Shown: positions 3,422 to 17,910 of the stretch, piece by piece
How positions within the stretch are numbered: position 1 is the first letter of the stretch
Layout: every line of letters begins with the position of its first letter
DNA from: an uncultured Thiomicrorhabdus sp.
Lineage (GTDB): Bacteria > Pseudomonadota > Gammaproteobacteria > Thiomicrospirales > Thiomicrospiraceae
Assembly: GCA_965602805.1 (NCBI GenBank)
Contig: CBFCZK010000004.1
Coordinates: forward strand, 72,549 to 96,548
DNA: 24,000 bases
Direction of reading: 5' to 3'
Notes under the pieces: generated by a model
What the model was told of the DNA's origin: nothing
The model's database searches: none
What the model saw: only the letters and a program-made list of their open reading frames with translations
Position numbers and translations under genes: made by a program

Positions 3422-4300
3422 GTGTCGATTAGTGAAAAGTTTTCAATTTTTTGTAAAAACCTAAGAATGAGTGATGTAGTTCTTAGAAATGTCAGAGCCC
3501 GAACGAAGAACATTACTAGAAGAATAAATTCGGATATTAGATGTTTAAACTCTGATACAAGATATTCCATGTTTGTGGGCTCATATGGGAGAGGTACAGC
3601 AATTCATACTAGTGATATTGACCTTGTTATTGAATTACCTTACTTGCTATATACAAAATATAATTCATATAGTGGAAATGGTCAGTCTGCACTCTTGCAA
3701 GAAGTAAGAAACACTATTCATAAAACGTATTCTACAACTCATATTAGTGGTGATGGTCAGGTTGTAAAATTGAACTTCACTGATGGGGTTTGCTTCGAGA
3801 TAGTACCCGTTTTTATAAATAAGGATGCTTCAAGTTTTACATACCCTGATACCAATAATGGGGGAAGCTGGAAAATTACCAAACCAAGAGAAGAAATAGC
3901 TGAAATAAATAAAAAAAACAACGAATTTAACAGTAACTTAAAACACCTATCTAGAATGGCAAGGGCTTGGAAAGAAAAGTGGAATGTTCCAATTAATGGA
4001 CTGCTAATAGATACACTGGCTTATAATTTTTTGCTTACCTGGGAATATAGTGACAATGGCTTTATTTTTTATGATTGGATGACAAGGGATTTTTTTGCTT
4101 TTTTACAAAAGCAAAATTCCAATCAAAGTTATTGGCTTGCCCCAGGGAGTAATCAGAAGGTTTTTAGAAAGGGAGTTTTTGAGAATAAAGCATCACGTTG
4201 TTTTGAACTCTCCAAGCAGGCGATTGAGTGTGAAGAAAGCAATATGCCGTATTCGGCAAATCAGAAATGGAAAGAAATTTATGGAACAAGGTTTGGTTAA
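3422..4300 (+). CDS. SMODS/CD-NTase-like nucleotidyltransferase, 292 aa (GTG start)
   Basis: GSYGRGTAIHTSDIDLVIELP (G-S...D-x-D pol-beta NTase signature). A later acidic strand GVCFEIVPVF, then ...W.ITKP... and ARAWKEKW typical of this family. The N-terminus EKFSIFCKNLRMSD fits the usual F-x-x-F-x-x-x-L start. Confidence 0.7.
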   Translation: MSISEKFSIFCKNLRMSDVVLRNVRARTKNITRRINSDIRCLNSDTRYSMFVGSYGRGTAIHTSDIDLVIELPYLLYTKYNSYSGNGQSALLQEVRNTIHKTYSTTHISGDGQVVKLNFTDGVCFEIVPVFINKDASSFTYPDTNNGGSWKITKPREEIAEINKKNNEFNSNLKHLSRMARAWKEKWNVPINGLLIDTLAYNFLLTWEYSDNGFIFYDWMTRDFFAFLQKQNSNQSYWLAPGSNQKVFRKGVFENKASRCFELSKQAIECEESNMPYSANQKWKEIYGTRFG

Positions 4301-4844
4301 TCAGCCATTAGAGCAGCAGATTAGAGAATGTTATGGAAGAGTTGTTTGGGCGCATAAGGTTCATGAAAAGTGTGCTGATTTGTTAAACAAAAAACTAGAT
4401 CGTATCAAATTTTGGCAAATCATTCTGTCCGCTATAATTACCACCGGCATTCTCATTTCTGTTTTTGGAGATTCTGTAGAGGTTGGAATAGCGGCCGCTC
4501 TCATCTCTTTTGCTCTTACAGTGCTTAACACCTATGTGAAGCAATATAATTTAGGAGAAACTGCACAGAAGCACTCAGATGCAGCAATATCTATTTGGAG
4601 TATTAGGGAGTCTTATTTATCGCTGTTAACTGACATTAATTCAGGCGAAATTAGTCAAGTTGACGCTAGAAAATTACGTGACTCTCTACAAACAAAGTTA
4701 GAAGATATTTACCGAGGCTCGCCTAGAACAAATGATAAAGCATATAAAGAGACATCAAAGGCTCTAAATAAACTTGATGAAATGACTTTTAGTGATGAGG
4801 AAATTGATAAGTTCCTCCCATCAGGATTGAGAAGAAGTAAATAA
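4281..4844 (+). CDS. SLATT-like 2-TM effector protein, 187 aa
   Basis: Start ATG at 4281 overlaps the NTase gene by 20 nt. Helical N-terminus (YGRVVWAHKVHEKCADLL). Two adjacent TM helices (FWQIILSAIITTGILISVFG, VGIAAALISFALTVLNTYV), then a helical tail. This is the architecture described for SMODS-associated SLATT domains. Confidence 0.6.
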   Translation: MEQGLVNQPLEQQIRECYGRVVWAHKVHEKCADLLNKKLDRIKFWQIILSAIITTGILISVFGDSVEVGIAAALISFALTVLNTYVKQYNLGETAQKHSDAAISIWSIRESYLSLLTDINSGEISQVDARKLRDSLQTKLEDIYRGSPRTNDKAYKETSKALNKLDEMTFSDEEIDKFLPSGLRRSK

Positions 4845-7329: not shown

Positions 7330-7927
7330 ATTGATTTTTCTAGATGCAATTAACCGTATTTTTTTATTTAAATTCTTACGCCGAGGGTGCCGTCCTTGGT
7401 GTCAATTTGACAAAGAAAAATCATATAAAATAGGTTTTAGTTCAGGTTTTAGTTCTGACGTTCAGACTAGAAATCCTGGTTATGAAGGGCATTGGGTACA
7501 CTTTTTTAAATCCGTCTCTTTGTGAGGATTTATTGCAGACACAATAGTTAGCATGCAGTCAGTATTGAAGTATCAATACCATTGATCTCATGCATATTTG
7601 TCTTAGGGTGCAAAGCGTAGATATAAGGTGTGAGGAAGTGGCATAACTAAATTTTAGTTGTGGCTATCCGAGGAGTTTTAGATTTTTTATTAAAACGATC
7701 GTTTTAATCTGGCATTACTTCTCTTTGGACGTTGGTGCGAAAGCATCAAGTTCTTTGAGGTAAATACCTAATGTTGGTATGAAACTTATTGAGTAAGGAA
7801 GTATGACAAAATTTAGGCACACGAATCCTACTGTGTTGAACTCAGTTTTAAAAAAACTGATTTTTTAGACTTCTGGTGCAGATATTAACTATCTGTCAGT
7901 GGTCTATTAGTTAGAAGGCCTAGTACA

Positions 7928-8015
7928 GCTTACAACGAGGGCCCTTGTAAGCCGTCTCATGGGTTGCATGAGACTACTCGATGCAATATCGAGGTTTTCG
8001 TTCAGAATGGAACGA
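7928..8015 (+). ncRNA. array of four abutting hairpins (candidate structured RNA or DNA structural site)
   Basis: GCTTACAA-N9-TTGTAAGC (7928-7952), GTCTCATG-N5-CATGAGAC (7954-7974), CTCGAT-N5-ATCGAG (7977-7993), TCGTTC-N6-GAACGA (7998-8015). All stems are perfect. Strand unknown. Confidence 0.35.
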
Positions 8016-8170
8016 TACATTTAAAGAAGTTTTAGTCTACAATTGAAAGGGCTTGTCAGCAAGAGTTTTTTGGAAATTAATTTCTAACTATCTGTAAAAC
8101 CTACAAAAAATGTAGGTATAGAAGATTTTTTGTTTAATATTTAAAGCGAAAGGAAATAGTCTTGCTAAAT

Positions 8171-8257
8171 ATGATACCTATATTAATTATCGTTGTTGCT
8201 GTCTTATCTCTTGTGCATGCTGCCTCTAAATCAAGGTCACAGGATGAAGATTCGTAA
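8171..8257 (+). CDS. mini-ORF, 28 aa, hydrophobic N-terminus with acidic tail (type I toxin-like)
   Basis: MIPILIIVVAVLSLVHAASKSRSQDEDS. AGGAAA lies 13 nt upstream of the ATG. Not in the ORF track (too short). Identical in both repeat copies. Confidence 0.35.
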   Translation: MIPILIIVVAVLSLVHAASKSRSQDEDS

Positions 8258-8298
8258 AATAATTATTTTGTTCTAAGAGCTTTTGAATTTACCCGTTA

Positions 8299-8436
8299 TT
8301 AATCTTGTGAGCCGTCTTGAGCTTTCTCCTCTGCTTCTTTTTCTTTAGAGGCTTTGTGTAAAAGGAAGGCTACCCCAAAAAGTACAAATCCGAAAGCTAG
8401 TGCAATCGAGGCTGTGATAAAAAGTATCCAGTTCAT
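8299..8436 (-). CDS. small single-TM protein, 45 aa
   Basis: MNWILFITASIALAFGFVLFGVAFLLHKASKEKEAEEKAQDGSQD. AAGGA lies 7 nt upstream of the ATG. Compared with the copy at 13450-13587 there are 3 synonymous third-position changes and 4 amino-acid changes (W->A, I->T, F->L, F->L) that leave the segment apolar. Confidence 0.55.
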   Translation of the reverse strand: MNWILFITASIALAFGFVLFGVAFLLHKASKEKEAEEKAQDGSQD

Positions 8437-8820: not shown

Positions 8821-9465
8821 ATGAATGAAGTACACGTGAATGAAATAAAACATTTGGTTTCTCAAATAGATGAAGTAAATTCAAATGATATATGTAAACA
8901 AATTGCACAGATATTGATGTGTGAATATCAGTTAGATATAAAGGATCATATATTTAGTCTCTCAGAGTTAGAGTTTTATATTTATTCTGATCAACATCCT
9001 GATCCATACGTCCATAAAAATGATAGACAAAAAAAAATTGGAAAGTTTTATGTCCATCCACAGGATGGAAATTATGGAGGTATTGATTTTACAATTGGGG
9101 ATACTGAAAAATACATTTTTGGTGGAGTCTTAATAAGAGGCTTGAAACGGGAGTGTGACAAGAAATTTATTAGTGGGCCAAACCTGGTAAAAAAAGAAAT
9201 CTACAATATTTTAAATATAGAAAATAAAGAAACTGAAAAAAAATATGAACAGTTACAGAATATATCCGATGAACAAATTAAAGTCGTCAGTCATAAAAAC
9301 GACAAAGTTGTACGATGTTCGACCAGAATAGGATTAAAGCCAAAATTTGAAGACTATCAAGTTGGTGGAAAATATATTTACAAATTACACCGATTTATTA
9401 CCTATGCAGAAGAAAAAGGGCATAAATTTAAAGAAAAAGGAAGTGTAACTCAATACAATAAATAG
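8821..9465 (+). CDS. Mpg/AAG-like (purine DNA glycosylase-like) protein, 214 aa
   Basis: AAGGA before the ATG. Ordered motifs SELEFY (cf. E-x-E-A-Y), DPYVH, GKFYVH, YGGIDFTIG, GGVLIRGL, ISGPNLV follow the order of the 3-methyladenine glycosylase (AAG/Mpg) family as I remember it. Divergent. Confidence 0.45.
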   Translation: MNEVHVNEIKHLVSQIDEVNSNDICKQIAQILMCEYQLDIKDHIFSLSELEFYIYSDQHPDPYVHKNDRQKKIGKFYVHPQDGNYGGIDFTIGDTEKYIFGGVLIRGLKRECDKKFISGPNLVKKEIYNILNIENKETEKKYEQLQNISDEQIKVVSHKNDKVVRCSTRIGLKPKFEDYQVGGKYIYKLHRFITYAEEKGHKFKEKGSVTQYNK

Positions 9466-9656
9466 ATTGTAATCCCTCTCTCCCTCCTTTCTTTTAACTT
9501 ATGGTTCAGGTACCTCTCGGCTATATGGCCGGGGGTGCCTTGTGCCGTTAATTCGAAATGATCTAAACTCCGTAATTTAGTAAGGCTAGTATTTAACTCT
9601 TCAAAGTCGTATTCCTTTCCTGTTAAAACATAGTTCCTACCTAGTCTTTGAACCAC
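9450..9656 (-). pseudogene. relic of an integrase gene 3' end (copy 1)
   Basis: ...TAQGTPGHIAERYLNHKLK-ERRE... matches the C-terminal AERCLNH...ERREA motif of the relic at 12432-12590. Shares a 55-nt core (9491-9545 vs 12533-12586). Lacks ~39 nt relative to copy 2. Confidence 0.5.
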
Positions 9657-9762
9657 AAATGTATTTTTTTATTTTTTCTCGCTTTTAGCCTTGCTGACGA
9701 AATTCATTAAGTCACTTAATCTGGAGGTACCCAATTAAGGGTGTTAATAAAAGGAAAATAAA

Positions 9763-9900
9763 ATGACTAATATTTATTCAGCAATTCATTCAAATCGTGG
9801 TCCATCAAGTCATCCTGGTCCAGGAGGAAATTGGCCAAGTACTACTGGCGGGACTTCTGGTGGTGGGCGCGGAAACTCTACGCCTACTAAAGGCAAGTAA
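9763..9900 (+). CDS. Gly/Pro/Ser/Thr-rich small protein, 45 aa
   Basis: MTNIYSAIHSNRGPSSHPGPGGNWPSTTGGTSGGGRGNSTPTKGK. AAGGA lies 8 nt upstream. G+C is concentrated in codon positions 1-2 with mostly A/T in position 3. Not in the ORF track. Confidence 0.45.
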   Translation: MTNIYSAIHSNRGPSSHPGPGGNWPSTTGGTSGGGRGNSTPTKGK

Positions 9901-9949
9901 TCACAAATCAATCCCCTCTGTTATCAGGGCAGGGGGGAGAGGAGTAGTT

Positions 9950-10171
9950 ATGAAAATATATAGCAGTTCAAAAGATGTTAATAGACTGGTAATGAGCTTG
10001 ATTAAATTCGGTTGGCAGGTTAAAACAGGCAAAAGGCACAATAGAATAATCTCTCCAAGAGGGCGAAAAGTTACATTCTCATCAACGCCTAGTGATTTTA
10101 GAGTATTCAAAAATTTTAGATCGCAAATACGAAATGAAATAAAGGAAATAAGTAGTCATGCCTTGCAGTGA
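9950..10171 (+). CDS. HicA/YcfA-like small protein, 73 aa
   Basis: Strong SD GAGGAG 6 nt before ATG 9950; the GTG at 9797 in the ORF track has none. SKDVNRLVMSLIKFGWQVKTGKRHNRIISPRGRKVTFSSTPSDFRVFKNFRSQIRN follows the L-x-K-x-G(W/F)...H...P...I layout of HicA-type toxins. Confidence 0.5.
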   Translation: MKIYSSSKDVNRLVMSLIKFGWQVKTGKRHNRIISPRGRKVTFSSTPSDFRVFKNFRSQIRNEIKEISSHALQ

Positions 10172-12413
10172 AATTAAATCTTCCTACCCGACATTGATTG
10201 AAGCCATGCGCTTTATGGCGACGTCTTTAGATCTTAAAGGAAATAATAAACGCATCGATGACAAATCCACAGGGCATATTGATCCAAGAGAAGTTGATAG
10301 TCTTATTCCGGAATTATTTGTAGATCGCGTGGATAGGGATATAGGGCCACACGCATCTGAATTTATTAGCGTACAGATTAACGGCTTAAAGGATCAATAT
10401 ATTGATTTTATAAAGGATTACAATGCCGATGGGCTTACAAGAACACAGCTTGTAAAATTATTGAACAAATCTGTTTTTCCAGCTTGGATTGCAAGGGTCT
10501 TTACTGAATTACACAAAGAGTTTGGAGGGCCTTCTGTTGCCACATTATTTGTGCAGCATAATAAGGCTGTTCCTTTGGTATTAAAATGGATTTCTAAACA
10601 CAATTCTTCTTGGAATGAACTTCTTGATTCAAGAGAAAAGAAGGATAGGGATAGAGTTTCTGAGTGGATAAAAGGCAATGAGATACCATCTTCTCAATCC
10701 ATTTTCGCATTAAAAAATATATGGATTCAGGAGTCTGGCTTATCGGTTCAAAACTTTGAAAATATCCAAGTATTATTGTTAATGGCTAGATTCGTTGATT
10801 CTTTGCGTAGATCCGATCAAACATGCACATTGATGAACGCTGTACTTCTTCAATTATGGCAAGGTTTTGCTGAGTTGCCAGTACCATTTCAAAAAGAAGT
10901 AGGAATAATTCTAAGTAAAGTGTCCAGTGATTTTGATCCTTCTTTTTATGATGCGCTTTCTAAGTTGCAATATAAATTAATACCAGATATATCTAAAGAT
11001 TCTATGTGTAAGGAAGACACGCGAATTTTGCTGGATTATGCACGTGCAAAATTAGTAAATATAAGTTGTAATCCAGGCATTCAGTCTTGGCTGGATTGGG
11101 GAGAGGCAAAGTGGCATGTGTTTTCTGGAACTTTAGAAGAAGCTAATAATTTTTATAAAAAGGCTTTTGATGCTGCTCTATATCAAGGAGGGATTAACCT
11201 TCTGGATATCATTAATCAATCTCTAGTTGTTGCTTCTAGTCTAGAGAAAGCAGATAAAGTCTTTCTAAAGCGTCTCAAGTGGGCCATGCTATTGTTCAAG
11301 TATGACATCCCATCAGTAACTAGTCCCAATACATCAAATAGATTTGAAGACAGCATTGAGGAATGGGAAATTCGTGCTTGGAGGTTAAATTTTTCTCGAA
11401 TCTTTCCTACAGTCGGGTTATTTCCAGGAGTTCAATTTGATATGGACGCTTTGCCATACACAATGGTTAATAGTGAGGATGAAGTTAAGCCAGATTTTCG
11501 ATACCCAAATAGAAAGTTCAAAATTGGTGAAGGTCATGTATTAAAAATGCCTCAACTTAACTGGTTCATTATCAAGGAAAATTATGATGTTTTCACAAAG
11601 CTATTAGAGGCAGGTGCTAGTCCTAATGTATTTTCGGATTCAATGGACACTCCTTTACAACTTTCTTTACAGCTATTGAATGTTTTAGATCCCTCTAGTA
11701 GTTTTGATGACAGATTCTTTTGGAGGCTTGCTGAGTTTCCTTATAAGGGGGAAGTCGTCAACACAAGGTCGCAAAAGAAAAGGTCTTTACCGTTAATTTT
11801 AGCAGTTCAATCGGGCGACCCTAAAATCGTTCAAAAGGTTATTGATATGGGGGCTGATCCCAATGGAAGAGGTCAAACTGATGAGCAAACCGCGTTAAAT
11901 GTCTGTTTGAAGCTGATGGCTTTGTGTAAAAATCCAATCGGTTTTATGGAGAATCAACGAGAAATGCCCGAGACAACTGAGGTGCTGGATTCTTTTAGAA
12001 GGCATACTGGAGGAGCAGTTGGTTCTTCCCTTGATCAAATGAAGGCTGTTCTGAATCAATATAAGACTGATCCTCTATATCAAGCTTTAACTATAGCTTT
12101 TGAAAAAAGGCTAATTGAAAATGCTTCTCGACTGGATTATCAATCTTTAATGCAGATTGCAGAAGTGCTTATTAAGGCTGGCGCCGACGTTAATGCGGAG
12201 CATAAGAGCCCTTTTAAAGGCTATACTCCATTGATGCTTGCGGCAGAAAATAATGAACACGAACTTTTTCAGTTAATGTTAAAGCATGGTGGACTTCCTG
12301 ATAAGGGTTATTGCACTCCTGAGAGGAGGGGGGCAATAACATGTTGGGAAATAGCAGAATACTTTAACTCTGTTAATGTTTTAAATCTGTTGAAAAAGTC
12401 CCGGTTGCACTGA
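10158..12413 (+). CDS. large protein, 751 aa: unrecognised helical N-terminal ~480 aa plus C-terminal ankyrin repeats
   Basis: ATG 10158 lies inside the previous gene (14-nt overlap). ANK-type repeats: TKLLEAGASPNVFSDSMDTPLQLSL, LPLILAVQSGDPKIVQKVIDMGADPNGRG, LMQIAEVLIKAGADVNAEH..GYTPLMLAAENNEHELFQLMLKHGGLPD. Confidence 0.85.
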   Translation: MPCSEIKSSYPTLIEAMRFMATSLDLKGNNKRIDDKSTGHIDPREVDSLIPELFVDRVDRDIGPHASEFISVQINGLKDQYIDFIKDYNADGLTRTQLVKLLNKSVFPAWIARVFTELHKEFGGPSVATLFVQHNKAVPLVLKWISKHNSSWNELLDSREKKDRDRVSEWIKGNEIPSSQSIFALKNIWIQESGLSVQNFENIQVLLLMARFVDSLRRSDQTCTLMNAVLLQLWQGFAELPVPFQKEVGIILSKVSSDFDPSFYDALSKLQYKLIPDISKDSMCKEDTRILLDYARAKLVNISCNPGIQSWLDWGEAKWHVFSGTLEEANNFYKKAFDAALYQGGINLLDIINQSLVVASSLEKADKVFLKRLKWAMLLFKYDIPSVTSPNTSNRFEDSIEEWEIRAWRLNFSRIFPTVGLFPGVQFDMDALPYTMVNSEDEVKPDFRYPNRKFKIGEGHVLKMPQLNWFIIKENYDVFTKLLEAGASPNVFSDSMDTPLQLSLQLLNVLDPSSSFDDRFFWRLAEFPYKGEVVNTRSQKKRSLPLILAVQSGDPKIVQKVIDMGADPNGRGQTDEQTALNVCLKLMALCKNPIGFMENQREMPETTEVLDSFRRHTGGAVGSSLDQMKAVLNQYKTDPLYQALTIAFEKRLIENASRLDYQSLMQIAEVLIKAGADVNAEHKSPFKGYTPLMLAAENNEHELFQLMLKHGGLPDKGYCTPERRGAITCWEIAEYFNSVNVLNLLKKSRLH

Positions 12414-12431
12414 TACAGGTTTTATTGATTT

Positions 12432-12590
12432 CTACTTGGTCTTAATGACAGGGCTTAGGGTCTGTGAAAGCTTTTCAAATGCCTCTCTTCTTTCGTCTAA
12501 ATAATCATGTCTATCGTAAATACCTTCTACACCTTTTAACTTATGGTTCAGGCACCTCTCGGCTATACGGTCGGGGTGCCTTGTGCAGCT
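12432..12590 (-). pseudogene. relic of an integrase gene 3' end (copy 2, last ~50 codons)
   Basis: Minus-strand translation ...HPDRIAERCLNHKLKGVEGIYDRHDYLDERREAFEKLSQTLSPVIKTK* is a typical C-terminus of P4/CP4-57-type tyrosine integrases. No upstream part remains. Confidence 0.65.
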
Positions 12591-13080
12591 AATAGAGTTT
12601 AGAAAGTGCAACGAAGAGCGGCGTGTACTGGTTATGTTCGTTATAGCTTGTGTGTAAGGTATGCAAAACGGTATGCAAATGCCGTATATGGTAATATAAA
12701 CCCGAAATCAATGGAGTTTTGGTGTTCGGTGTAGCCACTATGTTCAAAAGTTAATCTGTCGTTTTTTTACCTAACCCCCCGCTCTTGTTTCTTTCTCAGA
12801 TTTTTATTGTTGAGCCAATTGCTTTGAAAAATAAATAATTTTAAAGGCTGATCTTAAATATAATTGAGGCGGATAAGTTGAATTATTTTAATGGCTATAT
12901 ATACAATGTATTGTATTGGCACTTTTAGTGTAGGGAGGTCACTCGACCCTATCAAAATAAATCTTTTATAAGAGAGCTTGAGGAAAGAGGGTGGGAAATG
13001 GTAAATAGAATTAATGGTATATAATTACAATTCAATTACTTAACTTATTGAATTTTATTGACTGTTTAAGACCTAGTCCA

Positions 13081-13166
13081 GCTTACAACAAGGGCCATTG
13101 TAAGCCGTCTCATGGGTTGCATGAGACTCGATGCAATATCGAGAGTTTTCGTTCAGAATGGAACGA
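13081..13166 (+). ncRNA. four-hairpin array, second copy
   Basis: Same four stems as 7928-8015. Changes are confined to loop 1 and to the linker between hairpins 2 and 3 (3-nt deletion, stem retained). Confidence 0.35.
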
Positions 13167-13321
13167 TACATTTAAAGAAGTTTTAGTCTACAATTGAAAG
13201 GGCTTGTCAGCAAGAGTTTTTTGGAAATTAATTTCTAACTATCTGTAAAACCTACAAAAAATGTAGGTATAGAAGATTTTTTGTTTAATATTTAAAGCGA
13301 AAGGAAATAGTCTTGCTAAAT

Positions 13322-13408
13322 ATGATACCTATATTAATTATCGTTGTTGCTGTCTTATCTCTTGTGCATGCTGCCTCTAAATCAAGGTCACAGGATGAAG
13401 ATTCGTAA
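13322..13408 (+). CDS. mini-ORF, 28 aa (copy 2)
   Basis: Identical to 8171-8257. Confidence 0.35.
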   Translation: MIPILIIVVAVLSLVHAASKSRSQDEDS

Positions 13409-13449
13409 AATAATTATTTTGTTCTAAGAGCTTTTGAATTTACCCGTTA

Positions 13450-13587
13450 TTAATCTTGTGAGCCGTCTTGAGCTTTCTCCTCTGCTTCTTTTTCTTTAGA
13501 GGCTTTGTGTAAAAGGAAGGCTACCCCAAAAAGTACAAGTCCGAAAGCCAGTGCAATCGAGGCAGTGATTAAAAGTGTAGCATTCAT
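13450..13587 (-). CDS. small single-TM protein, 45 aa (copy 2)
   Basis: MNATLLITASIALAFGLVLFGVAFLLHKASKEKEAEEKAQDGSQD. Lies 79 nt downstream of the DUF3987 gene on the same strand. Confidence 0.55.
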   Translation of the reverse strand: MNATLLITASIALAFGLVLFGVAFLLHKASKEKEAEEKAQDGSQD

Positions 13588-13666: not shown

Positions 13667-15040
13667 TTAAATCCATCTATAAGCTTCCAGTGGTTGTCTT
13701 CCTTTAGTGCTTGTTTTTTCTTGTTTTACAGCTTCAATATAATGATGCTCCAGTAGTTTTTTAATTGCACCTAAAATCGCCTCTCGCTTGGTTAGCCCAC
13801 CCCAGCCCTTTAGTTCAATTTGGCGGGTGTTAAAGGTATCCGGGAGCTTCTTTTTTTCCTCGTAGATACGCCTAGCGTTTTCAATATCTTGGTCGCGTTT
13901 GTGAGGGTAAATTTTAACAGCATGTGACTCTAGATATTCACCAAGCTTACGGGCTTTGGTAAGGCTATCAAGACTGATTTCATTACTATAAGGGTTTTCT
14001 AAAACCTGAAAGATAAGTGATAAGGAGGCTATTAAGCTGTCATATTTGCCAAAGTGAGCGCTCAATGACTCATGTAAATCACCTGAAGATATTTTATTAC
14101 GGTTCTGTATGACGAAATCGTTATAAGCCTCTTGGGCTGGAAGTGAAAAGTTTAGTGTTTTACTAGATTTCATCTCTGTACATGCTTTATAAGCATTGTT
14201 AATTACATTGTAAGCTTCTTCTTTTGCAGTAAGATCGGGGGCACGATCTACTAACTTAAAAGAGGGGTCTTCTTCGGGCCAAACGGCAAGTTGAAAGCGC
14301 TGAAGAAACCCATCATTGCCAGAGCTTTTACGAATAACGTCTTGTATGTATTTATTCAGTTTTGAGGGTTGTATACCACCAATAATACTAATGTTCAGTT
14401 TTTCAATATGAATAGTCCCCCTCTTAATTCGATCGTAAGTGTACGGTGAATTTCCATTAAAGCTTTCAAGAAAAAATGAGCGATCATTTTCTCTCCCTGC
14501 TTTATTGAGTGATGAGAGCCAGCCGTCCAGCTCATCCCGGCAGAGAAGAATTCCTTGTTTTGAATAAGACAGTATTTCTCCTATTTTTTCGGTGGTTGCG
14601 TCTCTAACAACGGACCTTTTTTCTACTGAAGTATTTTCAAAGTATGAGTTTTCAATGTGATGAATTGCTCCGAGGGCTTCTTGAAGCATGGGTGATTTCC
14701 CTGCAGATGGCTCTCCTATTAGCATTCCCCATAAGTTAGGAGTAACGACCCATGAGTTGTCGTGTTGTTTGGGGCAAACTTTGAATTTATCCGAAATTAA
14801 AGAGGCTACCGAGATAATCATCGGTATTGCCATGAAGTCATGAGGGAATTGCATTCTTTCAGCGCAGTCGTAAATCCAGTTGTTAAGGCAGCTAGGTAGT
14901 AAATCACGACTGTATGCGTTAGCCTTAGCTTTATGAATCGAGTCTAGAGGTATTTTCTCCTTTAACTTTTCAGGAAAAGTGGAGTGCCCTTTTTTTTCAA
15001 CTGGGGCTGGTGGTATTTGAATAATATTTGAGGATGCCAT
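13667..15040 (-). CDS. DUF3987/YfjI-like P-loop protein (island replication/helicase-like), 457 aa
   Basis: Walker A GEPSAGKSP, Walker B-like LLCRDELDGWL, IIGGIQPSKL. Position directly after alpA, as in CP4-57/P4-like islands. Confidence 0.8.
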   Translation of the reverse strand: MASSNIIQIPPAPVEKKGHSTFPEKLKEKIPLDSIHKAKANAYSRDLLPSCLNNWIYDCAERMQFPHDFMAIPMIISVASLISDKFKVCPKQHDNSWVVTPNLWGMLIGEPSAGKSPMLQEALGAIHHIENSYFENTSVEKRSVVRDATTEKIGEILSYSKQGILLCRDELDGWLSSLNKAGRENDRSFFLESFNGNSPYTYDRIKRGTIHIEKLNISIIGGIQPSKLNKYIQDVIRKSSGNDGFLQRFQLAVWPEEDPSFKLVDRAPDLTAKEEAYNVINNAYKACTEMKSSKTLNFSLPAQEAYNDFVIQNRNKISSGDLHESLSAHFGKYDSLIASLSLIFQVLENPYSNEISLDSLTKARKLGEYLESHAVKIYPHKRDQDIENARRIYEEKKKLPDTFNTRQIELKGWGGLTKREAILGAIKKLLEHHYIEAVKQEKTSTKGRQPLEAYRWI

Positions 15041-15079
15041 TTTATTTCCTTAATGTTTTTTCCGATATATCCCTGTTTT

Positions 15080-15304
15080 TTATACTGATTGAGTATGGGT
15101 ATGAGTTCTGGATATAAGCCAGTTATCAAGGTCTGAATGGCGGTATAGGACCTTTCTACCCACTTTTATAAAAGGTATCTGATATCTTCCTGTGGTTCTC
15201 CAAATCGCGAGAGTTCCAACAGTAGTGCTTAAATAGTCAGCGGCTTCATTTGTAGTTAATAGTTTTTGCTGTAATGGATTAGGTGTCATGTTTATCTCCG
15301 TCAT
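15080..15304 (-). CDS. alpA: AlpA-family excisionase/transcriptional regulator, 74 aa
   Basis: LLTTNEAADYLSTTVGTLAIWRTTGRYQIPFIKVGRKVLYRHSDLDNWL (MerR-type excisionase HTH). Confidence 0.85.
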   Translation of the reverse strand: MTEINMTPNPLQQKLLTTNEAADYLSTTVGTLAIWRTTGRYQIPFIKVGRKVLYRHSDLDNWLISRTHTHTQSV

Positions 15305-15373
15305 GTTTAATTAATAATGATTAATGCTTGATCACGGAGGTAATGCTAGAGGTGTTTTGTCGTTTATAGAAAT

Positions 15374-15413
15374 GGGTTCTGGTACCAGAACCCAAGTTTG
15401 GTACCAGAAACCC
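15374..15413. promoter_or_regulatory. 20-bp perfect palindrome plus a second half-copy (terminator and/or operator upstream of alpA)
   Basis: GGGTTCTGGTACCAGAACCC (15374-15393), followed by TTTGGTACCAGAAACCC (15397-13). Lies between the ORF397 stop and the alpA start. Confidence 0.45.
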
Positions 15414-15416
15414 ATT

Positions 15417-16610
15417 TTATGGATGGTTTTTTGTTGTCGAAATAGATGTGTGTGAGTTTTTTAGGACTCTTAGCTTTAATTTTATCCAAGTAATGAAGGT
15501 ATCATTTGTGAATGGTTTTACTGCATCCATTGCCTGATCATCCCAGCATTTTTGAATAAGGGCCTGCATCCTTGAATCATTAAAGATAGCCATCGGCTTT
15601 AATTTAGTCGTTTCAGAAAAGATTTCTTCCACCGTCGACTCTATTAAAGGGCGGTATGTATGGGAGAATTTATGTTTGTTATCCCGGCCTTTTTGAGTGC
15701 CGCTTACGTAAGTGTTTAGCTGGCTATTAACTTGTAGTTTTTCCGCTTTAACGCTGCTTAGTGTTTTTTGTAACGATTGAAAGCTAGTTTGTTGTAATTG
15801 CAATATATAGCTAAAACAATCTTTTATTTCTAGGGATGTGGCTAGTAACTCTTCCAGTTTAATATTTGTAGGTTTTGTAGGTTTTGTAGGTTTTGTAGTG
15901 CCTTCTATCAAATAAAAAATAATCAAATACAGCCCGTCTATTTGAATGTTTTTGTATTCTATTCCGCTACACAGTTCATCACAGTATGTATCCTCTATCC
16001 ATTTAGATTTATTGTTATGAATTGAATGGTCCAAAAGTTCATCGAATAGAGTAGGAAATACTTCGGTGTTTGATGTTTTTGAATTCCTTAGATATTTGCA
16101 AATAAAGCTCCTTATATTCAAGCCTGATAGATAAAGTTCAAGCATGGTGGAGAAATTCAATTCAGCGAGCAAGTGATCTTGGATTCTTTCCTGAATTTCT
16201 TCGTTCATTATCGATGCTGGCAAGTCTATGCCTTGAATATAGTCGTCGCCATTTATTTCTGCTGAGATTAAGGCATTGTTTATTTCACAAGAATTAAGAG
16301 GTTTTAAATTATTGGTCAACCAGTTAGAAAAGTTATCTAAATCTTCGTCAAGTACTTTTAAAGTTAGGTTTCCGATGTCATAGCTTTGTACCGAACTGAT
16401 AAAATCTAGGTCATTAGAAACCTCTTCTATTAGTACTTTCTGGGTCTGTTTAATTTCCGAGGCAAGAATTCCCATGAAATTTTTACGAATGTGGTTTTCC
16501 AAGCCGGCTATATTAATTTGGCCTGCTTTATTCCAGCGGCTATCAAAATAATCAAGGACTTGTTGCATGTCTTTTTTTAATGAACTCAATAAAATGTTAG
16601 GAATGGTCAT
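15417..16610 (-). CDS. hypothetical protein, 397 aa, co-transcribed with the integrase
   Basis: Long ORF whose start overlaps the integrase stop by 14 nt. No motif recognised. Contains a (TKP)3 repeat. Confidence 0.75.
   Translation of the reverse strand: MTIPNILLSSLKKDMQQVLDYFDSRWNKAGQINIAGLENHIRKNFMGILASEIKQTQKVLIEEVSNDLDFISSVQSYDIGNLTLKVLDEDLDNFSNWLTNNLKPLNSCEINNALISAEINGDDYIQGIDLPASIMNEEIQERIQDHLLAELNFSTMLELYLSGLNIRSFICKYLRNSKTSNTEVFPTLFDELLDHSIHNNKSKWIEDTYCDELCSGIEYKNIQIDGLYLIIFYLIEGTTKPTKPTKPTNIKLEELLATSLEIKDCFSYILQLQQTSFQSLQKTLSSVKAEKLQVNSQLNTYVSGTQKGRDNKHKFSHTYRPLIESTVEEIFSETTKLKPMAIFNDSRMQALIQKCWDDQAMDAVKPFTNDTFITWIKLKLRVLKNSHTSISTTKNHP
15865..15898. repeat. 9-bp tandem repeat, ~3.8 copies (TTTGTAGGT)
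   Basis: tttgtaggt x3 plus tttgtag. Encodes TKPTKPTKPT in the 397-aa ORF. Confidence 0.9.
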
Positions 16611-17910
16611 TAAGTAGCTCCTGGAGTAGTTGGTTTTGATCTTCTTTGGAAAGTTTAGAAAGCATTACTTTTATAGAGTCGTTCAATTGAATTGGTCTTT
16701 CTTTTTTGGTCATGAAGTCGGTAATCATCTGAGAGGGAGGTCTTAGTTCGTCAGCTGTTTGGATTACATAGCCTTGGGTAACATCATTCTCATTGCGACT
16801 ATGGTTTGCAAGCTGCTTTAGTGTGTAAGAACTTATGTTTAGTCTGTTACCTATAGTCATAAATGTTCTGCGTAAATCATGAGGGGATATTTTGATTCCG
16901 GTTTCTTTAAGCAAAGATTTTAGTGGTTTTTTTGTATCTGAAATGCATTTACTATGATCTTTCACGGCGGGAAATAAGTATTCGCTATCATTGTCAGATA
17001 GCATACGTCTTTGAAAAACTTGTTCTGTAAAAGAAGTCATTGGTAGCCAGAGCTTAGTTTTGTTTTTGGTCTTTGTTAGCCAAAACCTTTTATATTTGAG
17101 ATCTACCATAATCTTAAGCATATTAGATGTTTCATTAAATCTAGTTCCATGAAACAGCATTGTTAATAACAAATCAGCCCCAGTTGTATAGAATTCATAT
17201 CCATTTTTGTCTTCAGCCATTCTTTGAATAAAATCAATAAAAATGGGTAATTGATCATCTTCCAGATGGGAGGTTTTACGATCTAATTTGTGAGTTTGCC
17301 TGTTTTTATAAAGTTTTTTGACTGGATTAATAGTTAATAGTGCTGTGCCTTTCGAGTCTTTTAATTCTTCAATAGCATAATTGAAAACGGCTCTTAGAAG
17401 GCGCATTGCTCTGTCGGCCTCTGCAGGGCTACGTATAGAATAATCTTGATGAACGGAAAGGATTATTTCGTATGAAATATCGAGTATTTTTTTATTGGAA
17501 AGTGGTGCAAGCACATTGGACATGCTTGATTGATAACCTTTTATAGTAACGTCACTTAATTTCCGTGATTTTAAGTAGTCTTCAAATATTTCATATAAAG
17601 TGGTGTTCAAGGAAGATATAGATTTCTTGTGTTGGTTTGGATTGATGCCTTGGTGAATTAGTGATTGCTGTTCGCGGGCATTGTTTCTAGCTTCTTCAAT
17701 TGTCATTAGGCCAAACTCACCAAGGGTCAAGGTTATAGTTTTGCCATTAAGTTTTTGTTTTATTCGAAAGTATTTTTTACCCGAAGTCATGACTTCTAGC
17801 TTGAGGCCATTTGATTTGGGGTGAGTGTCGTGGCAAAGGTATCGAGTTGAGAGAACAGGAAGTTCCGTAATTGACTTGATTGTGAAATTAAAGGTGTTTG
17901 AAGATGCCAA
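16597..17910 (-). CDS. int: tyrosine integrase, P4-like (DUF4102-type N-terminus), 437 aa
   Basis: N-terminus ...LKLEVMTSGKKYFRIKQKLNGKTITLTLGEFGLMTIEEARNNA... and C-terminus HDLRRTFMTIG...LANHS...TQGYV (R-H-R-Y set). Confidence 0.92.
   Translation of the reverse strand: MASSNTFNFTIKSITELPVLSTRYLCHDTHPKSNGLKLEVMTSGKKYFRIKQKLNGKTITLTLGEFGLMTIEEARNNAREQQSLIHQGINPNQHKKSISSLNTTLYEIFEDYLKSRKLSDVTIKGYQSSMSNVLAPLSNKKILDISYEIILSVHQDYSIRSPAEADRAMRLLRAVFNYAIEELKDSKGTALLTINPVKKLYKNRQTHKLDRKTSHLEDDQLPIFIDFIQRMAEDKNGYEFYTTGADLLLTMLFHGTRFNETSNMLKIMVDLKYKRFWLTKTKNKTKLWLPMTSFTEQVFQRRMLSDNDSEYLFPAVKDHSKCISDTKKPLKSLLKETGIKISPHDLRRTFMTIGNRLNISSYTLKQLANHSRNENDVTQGYVIQTADELRPPSQMITDFMTKKERPIQLNDSIKVMLSKLSKEDQNQLLQELLNDHS

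Follow-up and report, generated by a model that had tools for sequence, protein, structure and literature searches.

The 24,000-nucleotide (nt) stretch analysed here, from contig CBFCZK010000004.1 of an uncultured Thiomicrorhabdus sp. (hereafter the window), is a defence and mobile-element island. On its plus strand it carries a compact three-gene cassette, which is the subject of this work. The first gene, A (9763-9900), is preceded by the ribosome-binding site (RBS) AAGGAAA and encodes a 45-amino-acid (aa) basic peptide, rich in Gly, Pro, Ser and Thr and probably disordered. Gene B (9950-10171), with a GAGGAG RBS at 9939-9944, encodes a small HicA-like protein of 73 aa. The 751-aa open reading frame (ORF) of gene C (10158-12413) begins with an ATG located 14 nt inside gene B (ATGccttgcagTGA); its product is composed of an all-helical, solenoid-like domain (residues 1 to ~420, 10158-11420) and of a linker with an ankyrin-repeat domain (11421-12413). 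A preliminary description of the locus, made from the DNA letters, had delineated these three plus-strand ORFs and the start/stop overlap of B and C, and both were confirmed.

Relatives of the cassette were collected by a scan of one genome per species, with hidden Markov models (HMMs) of the small genes built from three examples. The scan returned 55 loci, about 39 of which (L005-L043) are true relatives and about 35 informative. The trio recurs in the same order in approximately 30 species-level genomes and on many metagenome contigs, mostly from marine bacteria, so that its earlier reading as an operon holds, and the operon is conserved. The relatives include Amphritea, Shewanella, Marinobacter, Alteromonas, Pseudoalteromonas, Glaciecola, Rheinheimera, Endozoicomonas, Photobacterium, Vibrio, Marinomonas and chromosome II of Aliivibrio fischeri ES114, as well as one Desulfuromonas genome and Rhodospirillales genomes. 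About 28 of the 35 informative loci have a HicA-like ORF immediately before the large gene, and about 33 of 35 genome loci encode a peptide of the Gly-rich or SMP-like type. At the positions of the two small genes, gene callers had annotated genes of 41-45 and 71-73 aa in the relatives, and the start/stop overlap of B and C is kept across loci. A gene order shared by about 30 unrelated genomes, together with protein-level conservation of the 45-aa ORF, is far beyond chance. In one locus (L060) the trio stands alone between acyl-CoA dehydrogenase and transketolase genes, and contigs of the Pseudomonas sp. C27 type carry an identical 43+73+754-aa trio within two different flanks. By these placements, the cassette is mobile and moves as a unit.

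Gene A had been overlooked as an ORF, and the proposal that it is coding is now supported by an excess of synonymous codon changes and by its recurrence upstream of B and C. Alignment of 22 peptides gives the core RGPSSHPGxGGNWPSTTGxxSGGGRGN (RGPSSHPGPGGNWPSTTGgtSGGGRGN for the peptide of the window). Its last 18 residues, GGNWPSTTGxxSGGGRGN, are near-invariant, the invariant residues each being written with 3-5 codons. Pairwise comparison of 31 distinct DNA versions of this 18-codon core gives 4012 synonymous codon differences and 1178 nonsynonymous ones, the latter mostly at two variable positions. The set was gathered by the amino-acid motif, so the invariance is partly there by construction, but the synonymous spread is not; moreover, an independent HMM search recovers the same peptides. 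Since the protein is conserved despite abundant synonymous change, gene A is a real coding gene under strong protein-level selection, and its product is the most conserved of the three. In about 26 genome loci, a homologous peptide gene immediately precedes that of the HicA-like or the large protein. The core SSHPGPGGNWPSTTGRPSGGGRGNA persists unbroken even on Acinetobacter soli plasmids, where the large protein is just 26% identical. The near-frozen state of the core across proteobacterial classes (Gamma-, Alpha- and one Desulfuromonas genome) points to an important conserved target.

The Gly-rich peptide has no match in Pfam, NCBIfam, PADLOC or PHROG, and its motif was not found in the searchable literature. 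The family comprises at least 639 clusters, about ten times more than the families of B or C, with members in Proteus, Cronobacter, Vibrio and Pseudomonas among others. In metagenome and viral contigs the peptide was located with a degenerate DNA pattern. A tblastn search of plasmids and phages with the peptide returned nothing despite a known plasmid copy, for which the low-complexity filter is the likely cause. A longer version of about 60 aa, with a Gly/Ser/Lys-rich N-terminus (MSKGGGGKG...SSRGPSSHPGPGGNWPSTTGGVSGGNRGNAPSAPGKKG), occurs at L077-L093 (IMG/VR) and L095-L174 (metagenomes); G+C-rich viral or prophage-like contigs often carry it, with a same-strand downstream partner that is variable or missing. 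On the A. soli plasmid pAS903-1-2 (L070, 4630-4780) the peptide frame has no ATG, GTG or TTG start, which points to a non-canonical start or to a recent inactivation of the gene. Neither the peptide nor the 75-aa HicA-like ORF is annotated in the plasmid record.

In a divergent branch of the cassette, found in Endozoicomonas, Photobacterium, Vibrio, A. fischeri, Psychromonas and Rhodospirillales, the first gene encodes M..PMTPxAAARIQSAEAKANGGxVAKGSFAARAQSAAAKN in place of the Gly-rich peptide. Such first genes are present at L026, L027, L033, L035, L036, L038, L041 and L043. These substitute peptides reach the threshold of the Pfam family SMP (PF04927, seed maturation/LEA) in 4 of 6 cases, and neither the peptide of the window nor three other Gly-rich peptides match SMP. 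A Marinospirillum locus (L018) has both peptide types in tandem (9579-9767). The first gene is therefore replaceable by an SMP/LEA-like peptide. The SMP matches, together with hosts that are mostly marine or cold-water bacteria, could speak for a stress-protection module, in which a disordered, hydrophilin-type peptide would act against desiccation, osmotic or cold stress and the scaffold would be its chaperone or regulator. We consider this very unlikely, given the mobile-element and defence-island context, the coupling to a HicA-like protein and the patchy, strain-level distribution. An SMP-like peptide gene is also paired with a 104-aa HicA-like gene, without the large gene, at L065/L066 (6814-7315); this pair lies in a 7-Mb genome, inside a Tn7-like transposon associated with type I-F CRISPR (clustered regularly interspaced short palindromic repeats), between TniB and TniQ-Csy2-Csy3-Csy4.

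The product of gene C has 29 full-length homologs (700-780 aa, 26-52% identity) among 5.8 billion proteins searched, originating from Colwellia, Oceanospirillaceae, Microbulbifer, Pseudomonadales and metagenomes. An exhaustive profile search with the N-domain recovered 418 relatives among 1.84 billion representatives. Almost all are 730-780 aa long with the domain at their N-terminus, and some have about 400-440 aa; the architecture is thus uniform, with no recognisable enzyme domain. The AlphaFold model of the full protein, computed with the homolog alignment, has a predicted local distance difference test score (pLDDT) of 86 and a predicted template-modelling score (pTM) of 0.83. About 20 helices occupy residues 1-420 and are followed by a partly disordered but highly conserved linker with the motifs ExWE, FP and PDxRxPN, and then by the ankyrin domain, whose insert carries an invariant RR at residues 614-615. 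Modelled alone, the N-domain has a pLDDT of 83.

Pfam matches above threshold are confined to the ankyrin repeats in the last ~300 residues of C (Ank, 48 bits; Ank_2, 44 bits; Ank_3; Ank_5). A Foldseek search with the whole model gave 166 PDB matches at E <= 1e-3, with E down to 6e-8, and the best 50 of these 166 are almost all ankyrin-repeat proteins, such as ankyrin-B, or designed ankyrin repeats. The ankyrin nature of the C-terminus, recognised in the preliminary description, is thus established. The N-terminal part, read there as helical and TPR-like, is indeed all-helical in the model, but the TPR-like assignment finds no support: C has no TPR match in Pfam, and Foldseek of the N-domain against the PDB gave no significant match (best E 0.36, template-modelling (TM) score <= 0.23). 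The noise-level matches were generic solenoids (proteasome lid, 14-3-3, APC, Rap/NprR), and the BFVD viral models returned nothing. In the model, C is a two-domain repeat scaffold without a recognisable enzyme fold.

The ankyrin repeats also raised the question of a secreted Dot/Icm-type effector of an intracellular bacterium, with the small genes being unrelated to it. The low G+C content of the window and weak matches of the repeats to NCBIfam Dot/Icm ankyrin effectors (15-25 bits) are in line with this idea. On the other hand, the NCBIfam cut-offs for AnkG, AnkH, AnkY and AnkX are 500-1400 bits, far above these scores, and full-length homologs with the same small partners are found in free-living Alteromonas, Shewanella, Vibrio, Marinobacter, Pseudomonas and Acinetobacter, among others. 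This explanation is extremely improbable and was rejected on the basis of score and of distribution outside Legionellales.

The peptide has a second recurrent partner, a family of 400-540-aa proteins encoded directly downstream of it, for example in Proteus terrae (L071, 6001-7364) and at L100, L143, L145 and L159. Single-sequence comparison missed its relationship with C, which was found by profile-profile comparison with hhalign: the second partner is homologous to residues 5-230 only of the 751-aa protein (88% probability, E 2.9e-6, 223 columns), with the motifs FPTLxE and W..G..(I/F)PS in common. Since the two families share only this module, the N-terminal ~230 residues of C are the part that travels with the peptide, and the two are linked. 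The second partner family occurs without a HicA-like gene.

Between genes A and B, the plus strand can form a hairpin with an 11-bp G+C-rich stem (9912-9938), which abuts the GAGGAG RBS of gene B. The 61-nt stretch 9895-9955 folds with -21.1 kcal/mol (z = -3.7), and 0 of 200 shuffled sequences fold as well. A strong G+C-rich hairpin follows the peptide gene in all 10 loci folded, despite a lack of sequence relationship; the z-scores lie between -1.2 and -5.3, and in 7 of the 10 at most one of 200 shuffles is better. The hairpin of the window has no U-run after the stem; at some other loci a short U-run follows. Consensus scans for promoters and terminators were uninformative, no terminator being reported within 9400-12800, and Rfam detected no RNA family across the trio region. 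From this anatomy, a hairpin located after gene A would attenuate read-through, and the peptide would thus be made in excess over B and C.

The hairpin, directly 3' of the peptide gene and abutting the next RBS, would also suit another view of the 45-aa ORF, as a regulatory leader or an independent gene of the mobile-element backbone, with only B and C forming a system. A peptide family about ten times the size of those of B or C, mostly with other or no downstream partners, fits such a role, and the extreme conservation would suit a universal target such as the ribosome. Nevertheless, we find this improbable. The cassette moves with its peptide included, and the core persists even alongside a C of just 26% identity. 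Furthermore, the divergent branch has a different peptide, SMP-like and without the Pro/Trp motif, at the same position, one locus having both, and the two partner families that follow the peptide have homologous N-modules.

The assignment of gene B as HicA-like was also reconsidered. The PADLOC model PDLC02910 'HicA-like' matches it with E 2.6e-22 (76.5 bits) over profile positions 3-59 of 61, and its relatives score 80-93 bits, over the entire profile. H30 and P47 are invariant in 55 homologs. In an hhalign comparison with E. coli HicA, the GKRH of gene B is placed so that His30 falls on the catalytic His of GSNH (E 0.0015, probability 16%). Weak matches to Pfam HicA_toxin are present in 4 of 19 relatives of gene B (best E 2.2e-4), one cluster of the family (P0084) has a precomputed PF07927 match, and some sources label the relatives YcfA/HicA-like. 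Gene B further matches PHROG 2089 and 2053, both of unknown function, and its family is narrow, with 70 clusters. Profile searches of PDB sequences with 19- and 55-sequence alignments of the HicA-like proteins retrieved no HicA structure. Collectively, the PADLOC match, the aligned invariant His30 and the weak Pfam matches of relatives sustain the preliminary description of a 73-aa HicA-like protein, short of the Pfam family threshold, and 'HicA-like' is a reasonable term for what would be a putative RNase or RNA-binding effector. It had also been stated that no HicB-like antitoxin gene follows, and this is correct: no cognate HicB was found downstream, where the next gene has only ankyrin Pfam matches and the novel helical domain.

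Some further copies of these genes deserve mention. At L067-L069 (6732-7427), a HicA-like gene of the same family (83 bits in PADLOC) is located between the gene for a 90-aa WG_beta_rep protein and a 63-aa ORF; this set has different partners, and a giant UvrA-like protein of 1976 aa is encoded beside it. In two genomes (L006, 2820-3103; L013, 1167-1424) a frameshift breaks the HicA-like gene in two, and in Thioclava (L064, 7225-9233) the large gene is split into 521 and 159 aa. Such split copies are signs of decay. L023 and L042 are devoid of both small genes.

The cassette is found in defence islands and in transposon or island cargo slots, with recognised anti-phage genes as its usual neighbours; this neighbourhood constitutes evidence by association and not a statistical test. 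In the window, the neighbour is a cyclase with a 2TM effector of the cyclic oligonucleotide-based antiphage signalling system (CBASS). Elsewhere, the cassette is beside Shedu and Fic in Tn7-like cargo; an SNF2 helicase and an Eco57I-like giant gene; a 1273-aa SIR2_2 protein and Fic; type I restriction-modification (RM), DUF4268 and an integrase in Thioclava; PLD-SNF2, GmrSD and RhuM, or McrBC and an AAA_15/21 ATPase; and, on the A. soli plasmids, DUF262-HNH and an AAA protein. The 105 ORFs flanking 28 further loci include type I RM (in 3-4 loci), type IIG and type IV restriction enzymes, PbeA, SspA, PDC-M16A, Zeta toxin, integrases, TniQ and YagK/YfjJ.

Residence in Tn7-like cargo, on plasmids and in integrase-bordered islands, together with the resemblance of B to the HicA toxin, would also be expected of an ordinary addiction (toxin-antitoxin) module that stabilizes islands, transposons and plasmids and has no role in phage defence. 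This explanation is rather unlikely, since the cassette is repeatedly adjacent to many unrelated defence systems and a 750-aa repeat scaffold is atypical as an antitoxin. Besides, toxin-antitoxin modules and abortive-infection defence are not mutually exclusive.

The reading that we tentatively favour, with a probability of about one in three (0.35), is that the trio could be a self-contained, horizontally mobile cassette of the defence or toxin-antitoxin type, which would operate by a peptide-scaffold-RNase mechanism. Peptide A, produced in excess over B and C by hairpin-attenuated read-through, would bind the N-terminal ~230-residue module of scaffold C. By its helical and ankyrin grooves, C would in turn hold the HicA-like B inactive, taking the place of HicB. 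B could be freed when a phage protein is captured by the ankyrin/solenoid surface or, alternatively, when the labile peptide is lost or titrated as host expression is shut off. Freed B would then cleave RNA and arrest the cell. In this scheme, peptide and scaffold may be the ancient core, and the HicA-like protein a frequent (~80%) and exchangeable effector add-on.

Several observations weigh against this mechanism. The HicA-like gene is cleanly absent from about 7 of 35 genome loci (~20%) and from several metagenome loci, so B cannot be the sole effector. For the same reason, the small toxin and large sensor of the preliminary view do not form the invariant core, the peptide or its substitute being present in about 33 of the 35. 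As for its proposed activity, the 73-aa protein of the window has no match to Pfam HicA_toxin PF07927 at E <= 1, and the probability of its alignment with E. coli HicA is just 16%. Among the 67 metagenome or viral loci with enough sequence downstream of the peptide, 48 have neither the N-domain nor the HicA-like protein and 19 have either or both; the role of the peptide may thus be independent. Finally, some cassette loci are located among housekeeping genes without any defence neighbour. Gene C was not found in 50,697 phage genomes and is effectively absent from IMG/VR, which is neutral in this respect.

The loci devoid of B give weight to the main rival, a two-component peptide-scaffold system in which the HicA-like protein is an accessory, for instance an RNA-binding regulator. 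The effector activity would then reside in the scaffold or in the peptide-scaffold complex, which could, for example, sequester a conserved host or phage factor. Indeed, peptide and large gene occur without the HicA-like gene at L008, L018, L030, L035 (A. fischeri) and L038, with short, clean gaps of 65-105 nt, and at several metagenome loci; the second partner family with the N-module has no HicA-like gene either, and the invariant charged residues E401, E404, R614 and R615 of C could form an unrecognised site. However, no enzyme fold was detected in C, and B is kept in about 80% of loci with its invariant His and its conserved translational coupling to C. We regard this system as possible, but less likely than the favoured reading.

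Among known systems, HicAB is of the nearest kind, with a small HicA-type protein translationally coupled to a neutralizing partner, a role that C would fill in the cassette. As in HicAB, where HicA is an mRNA interferase (PF07927), a protein of about 70 aa displays the pattern LxxxGW...G-x-x-H...P with an aligned invariant His, the toxin-like gene precedes and overlaps that of its partner, and the genes are frequent on mobile elements and in defence islands. In contrast to HicAB, the partner is a helical and ankyrin scaffold of 750 aa that lacks RNase-H-like and DNA-binding domains, the operon starts with a peptide gene, the small protein stays below the Pfam HicA threshold, and about 20% of loci do without the HicA-like gene. 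In tripartite toxin-antitoxin-chaperone (TAC) systems, such as HigB-HigA-SecB-like, a small RNase toxin is kept under control by a large helper, which binds a small partner that is disordered and labile. The cassette may follow a similar three-gene logic, but it differs from TAC in gene order and sizes and has no homologous component.

Ankyrin repeats as a sensor and an RNase as the output are likewise combined in the animal antiviral protein RNase L, whose sensor domain is among the Foldseek matches to the ankyrin part of C. RNase L unites a kinase-like domain and a KEN RNase in one polypeptide and senses 2-5A, whereas the candidate RNase of the cassette is a separate HicA-like protein. A helical-repeat protein encoded beside a small peptide also recalls the TPR-type peptide receptors Rap/NprR/PlcR and AimR. 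However, the Rap and NprR matches to C are at noise level (E > 1, TM < 0.23), C has no DNA-binding output domain, and inspection of the cassette peptides by eye reveals no N-terminal hydrophobic export signal. As to the SMP/LEA D-34 hydrophilins (PF04927), the likeness is limited to the substitute peptides of the divergent branch that reach the SMP threshold; the Gly-rich peptide of the window does not match SMP, and the bacterial peptides are single units of about 50 aa in a mobile operon.

Whether the system is undescribed, as initially suggested, can be answered in part. The trio combination was not found described in the literature searched, and the N-domain of C and the peptide lie outside PADLOC v2, which has no model for gene A. 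On the other hand, PADLOC-DB v2 does contain the 'HicA-like' model PDLC02910, which recognises the gene B family with 76-93 bits over the full profile, and an otherwise unrelated-looking 'Ankyrin' model with a neighbouring number, PDLC02908, in which the repeats occupy the C-terminal end of 880 profile positions in a domain order similar to that of C. PADLOC may thus already list a related pair. In the 751-aa family, PDLC02908 (~30-130 residues) and PDC-M72A recognise just the ankyrin repeats, and neither ever matches the first 450 residues.

Should the cassette prove to be a defence or toxin system, a large repeat scaffold together with a small disordered peptide, and not HicB, would control its HicA-type effector, a control logic with no described counterpart among bacterial toxin or immune modules. 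More doubtfully, GGNWPSTTG peptides and proteins with the ~230-residue N-module might make up a class of conflict or immune systems that depend on a peptide and have so far gone unrecognised, in which a hyper-conserved, abundant and disordered peptide would serve as bait for, or mimic of, a universally conserved target, while the scaffold would read the state of the peptide and release exchangeable effectors, the HicA-like protein being one. The peptide itself is a very widespread, unannotated small protein of mobile elements. Family members in A. fischeri ES114, a tractable model, and in Pseudomonas, Acinetobacter and Proteus make experiments straightforward.

In the window, the trio occupies an island cargo slot, as had been proposed, next to defence genes. 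The integrase-gene relics reported to bracket it are real. The left one (9450-9656, minus strand) has 52% identity over 25 aa to the downstream relic (12432-12611, minus strand), and a 44-nt direct repeat is common to the upstream relic and 12533-12576. The downstream relic corresponds to the 3' end of a P4-type tyrosine integrase; with tblastn it finds, in 923 plasmid records, proteins annotated as site-specific integrases or DUF4102, at 60-65% identity across 37 aa. An origin from either of the two intact integrases that the window also encodes was rejected, since neither relic matches them; the matches to P4-type/DUF4102 integrases indicate that the relics derive from a different, P4-type integrase.

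The slot is enclosed, in turn, by two almost identical direct repeats (~7915-8430 and ~13068-13585) of about 515-530 bp, slightly shorter than the ~540 bp initially estimated. The trio is indeed inside them. The repeats bracket a unit of about 5.1 kb, which suggests tandem accretion or duplication of islands. Each copy encodes two tiny hydrophobic ORFs, in the right repeat of 31 aa (13313-13408, plus strand) and 45 aa (13450-13587, minus strand). The same unit and cargo slot contain a 214-aa ORF (8821-9465, plus strand), which has no Pfam match above threshold, no match in PADLOC, NCBIfam or PHROG, and was not found as a cassette member in any other locus examined.

Upstream of this unit, a CBASS oligonucleotide cyclase (3422-4300, plus strand; PADLOC E 1.6e-128, Pfam SMODS) is overlapped by the ORF of a 2TM CBASS effector ending at 4844 on the same strand (PADLOC E 1.5e-77), and together they constitute a complete type I CBASS (3422-4844). 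A resolvase (1906-2493) is located upstream of it. Right after the right-hand direct repeat, the minus strand (13667-17910) carries a DUF3987 helicase/primase-type gene, matching a PHROG DNA helicase (E 5e-25), a 397-aa unknown gene and a 437-aa tyrosine integrase, which form a satellite- or island-like replication and integration module.

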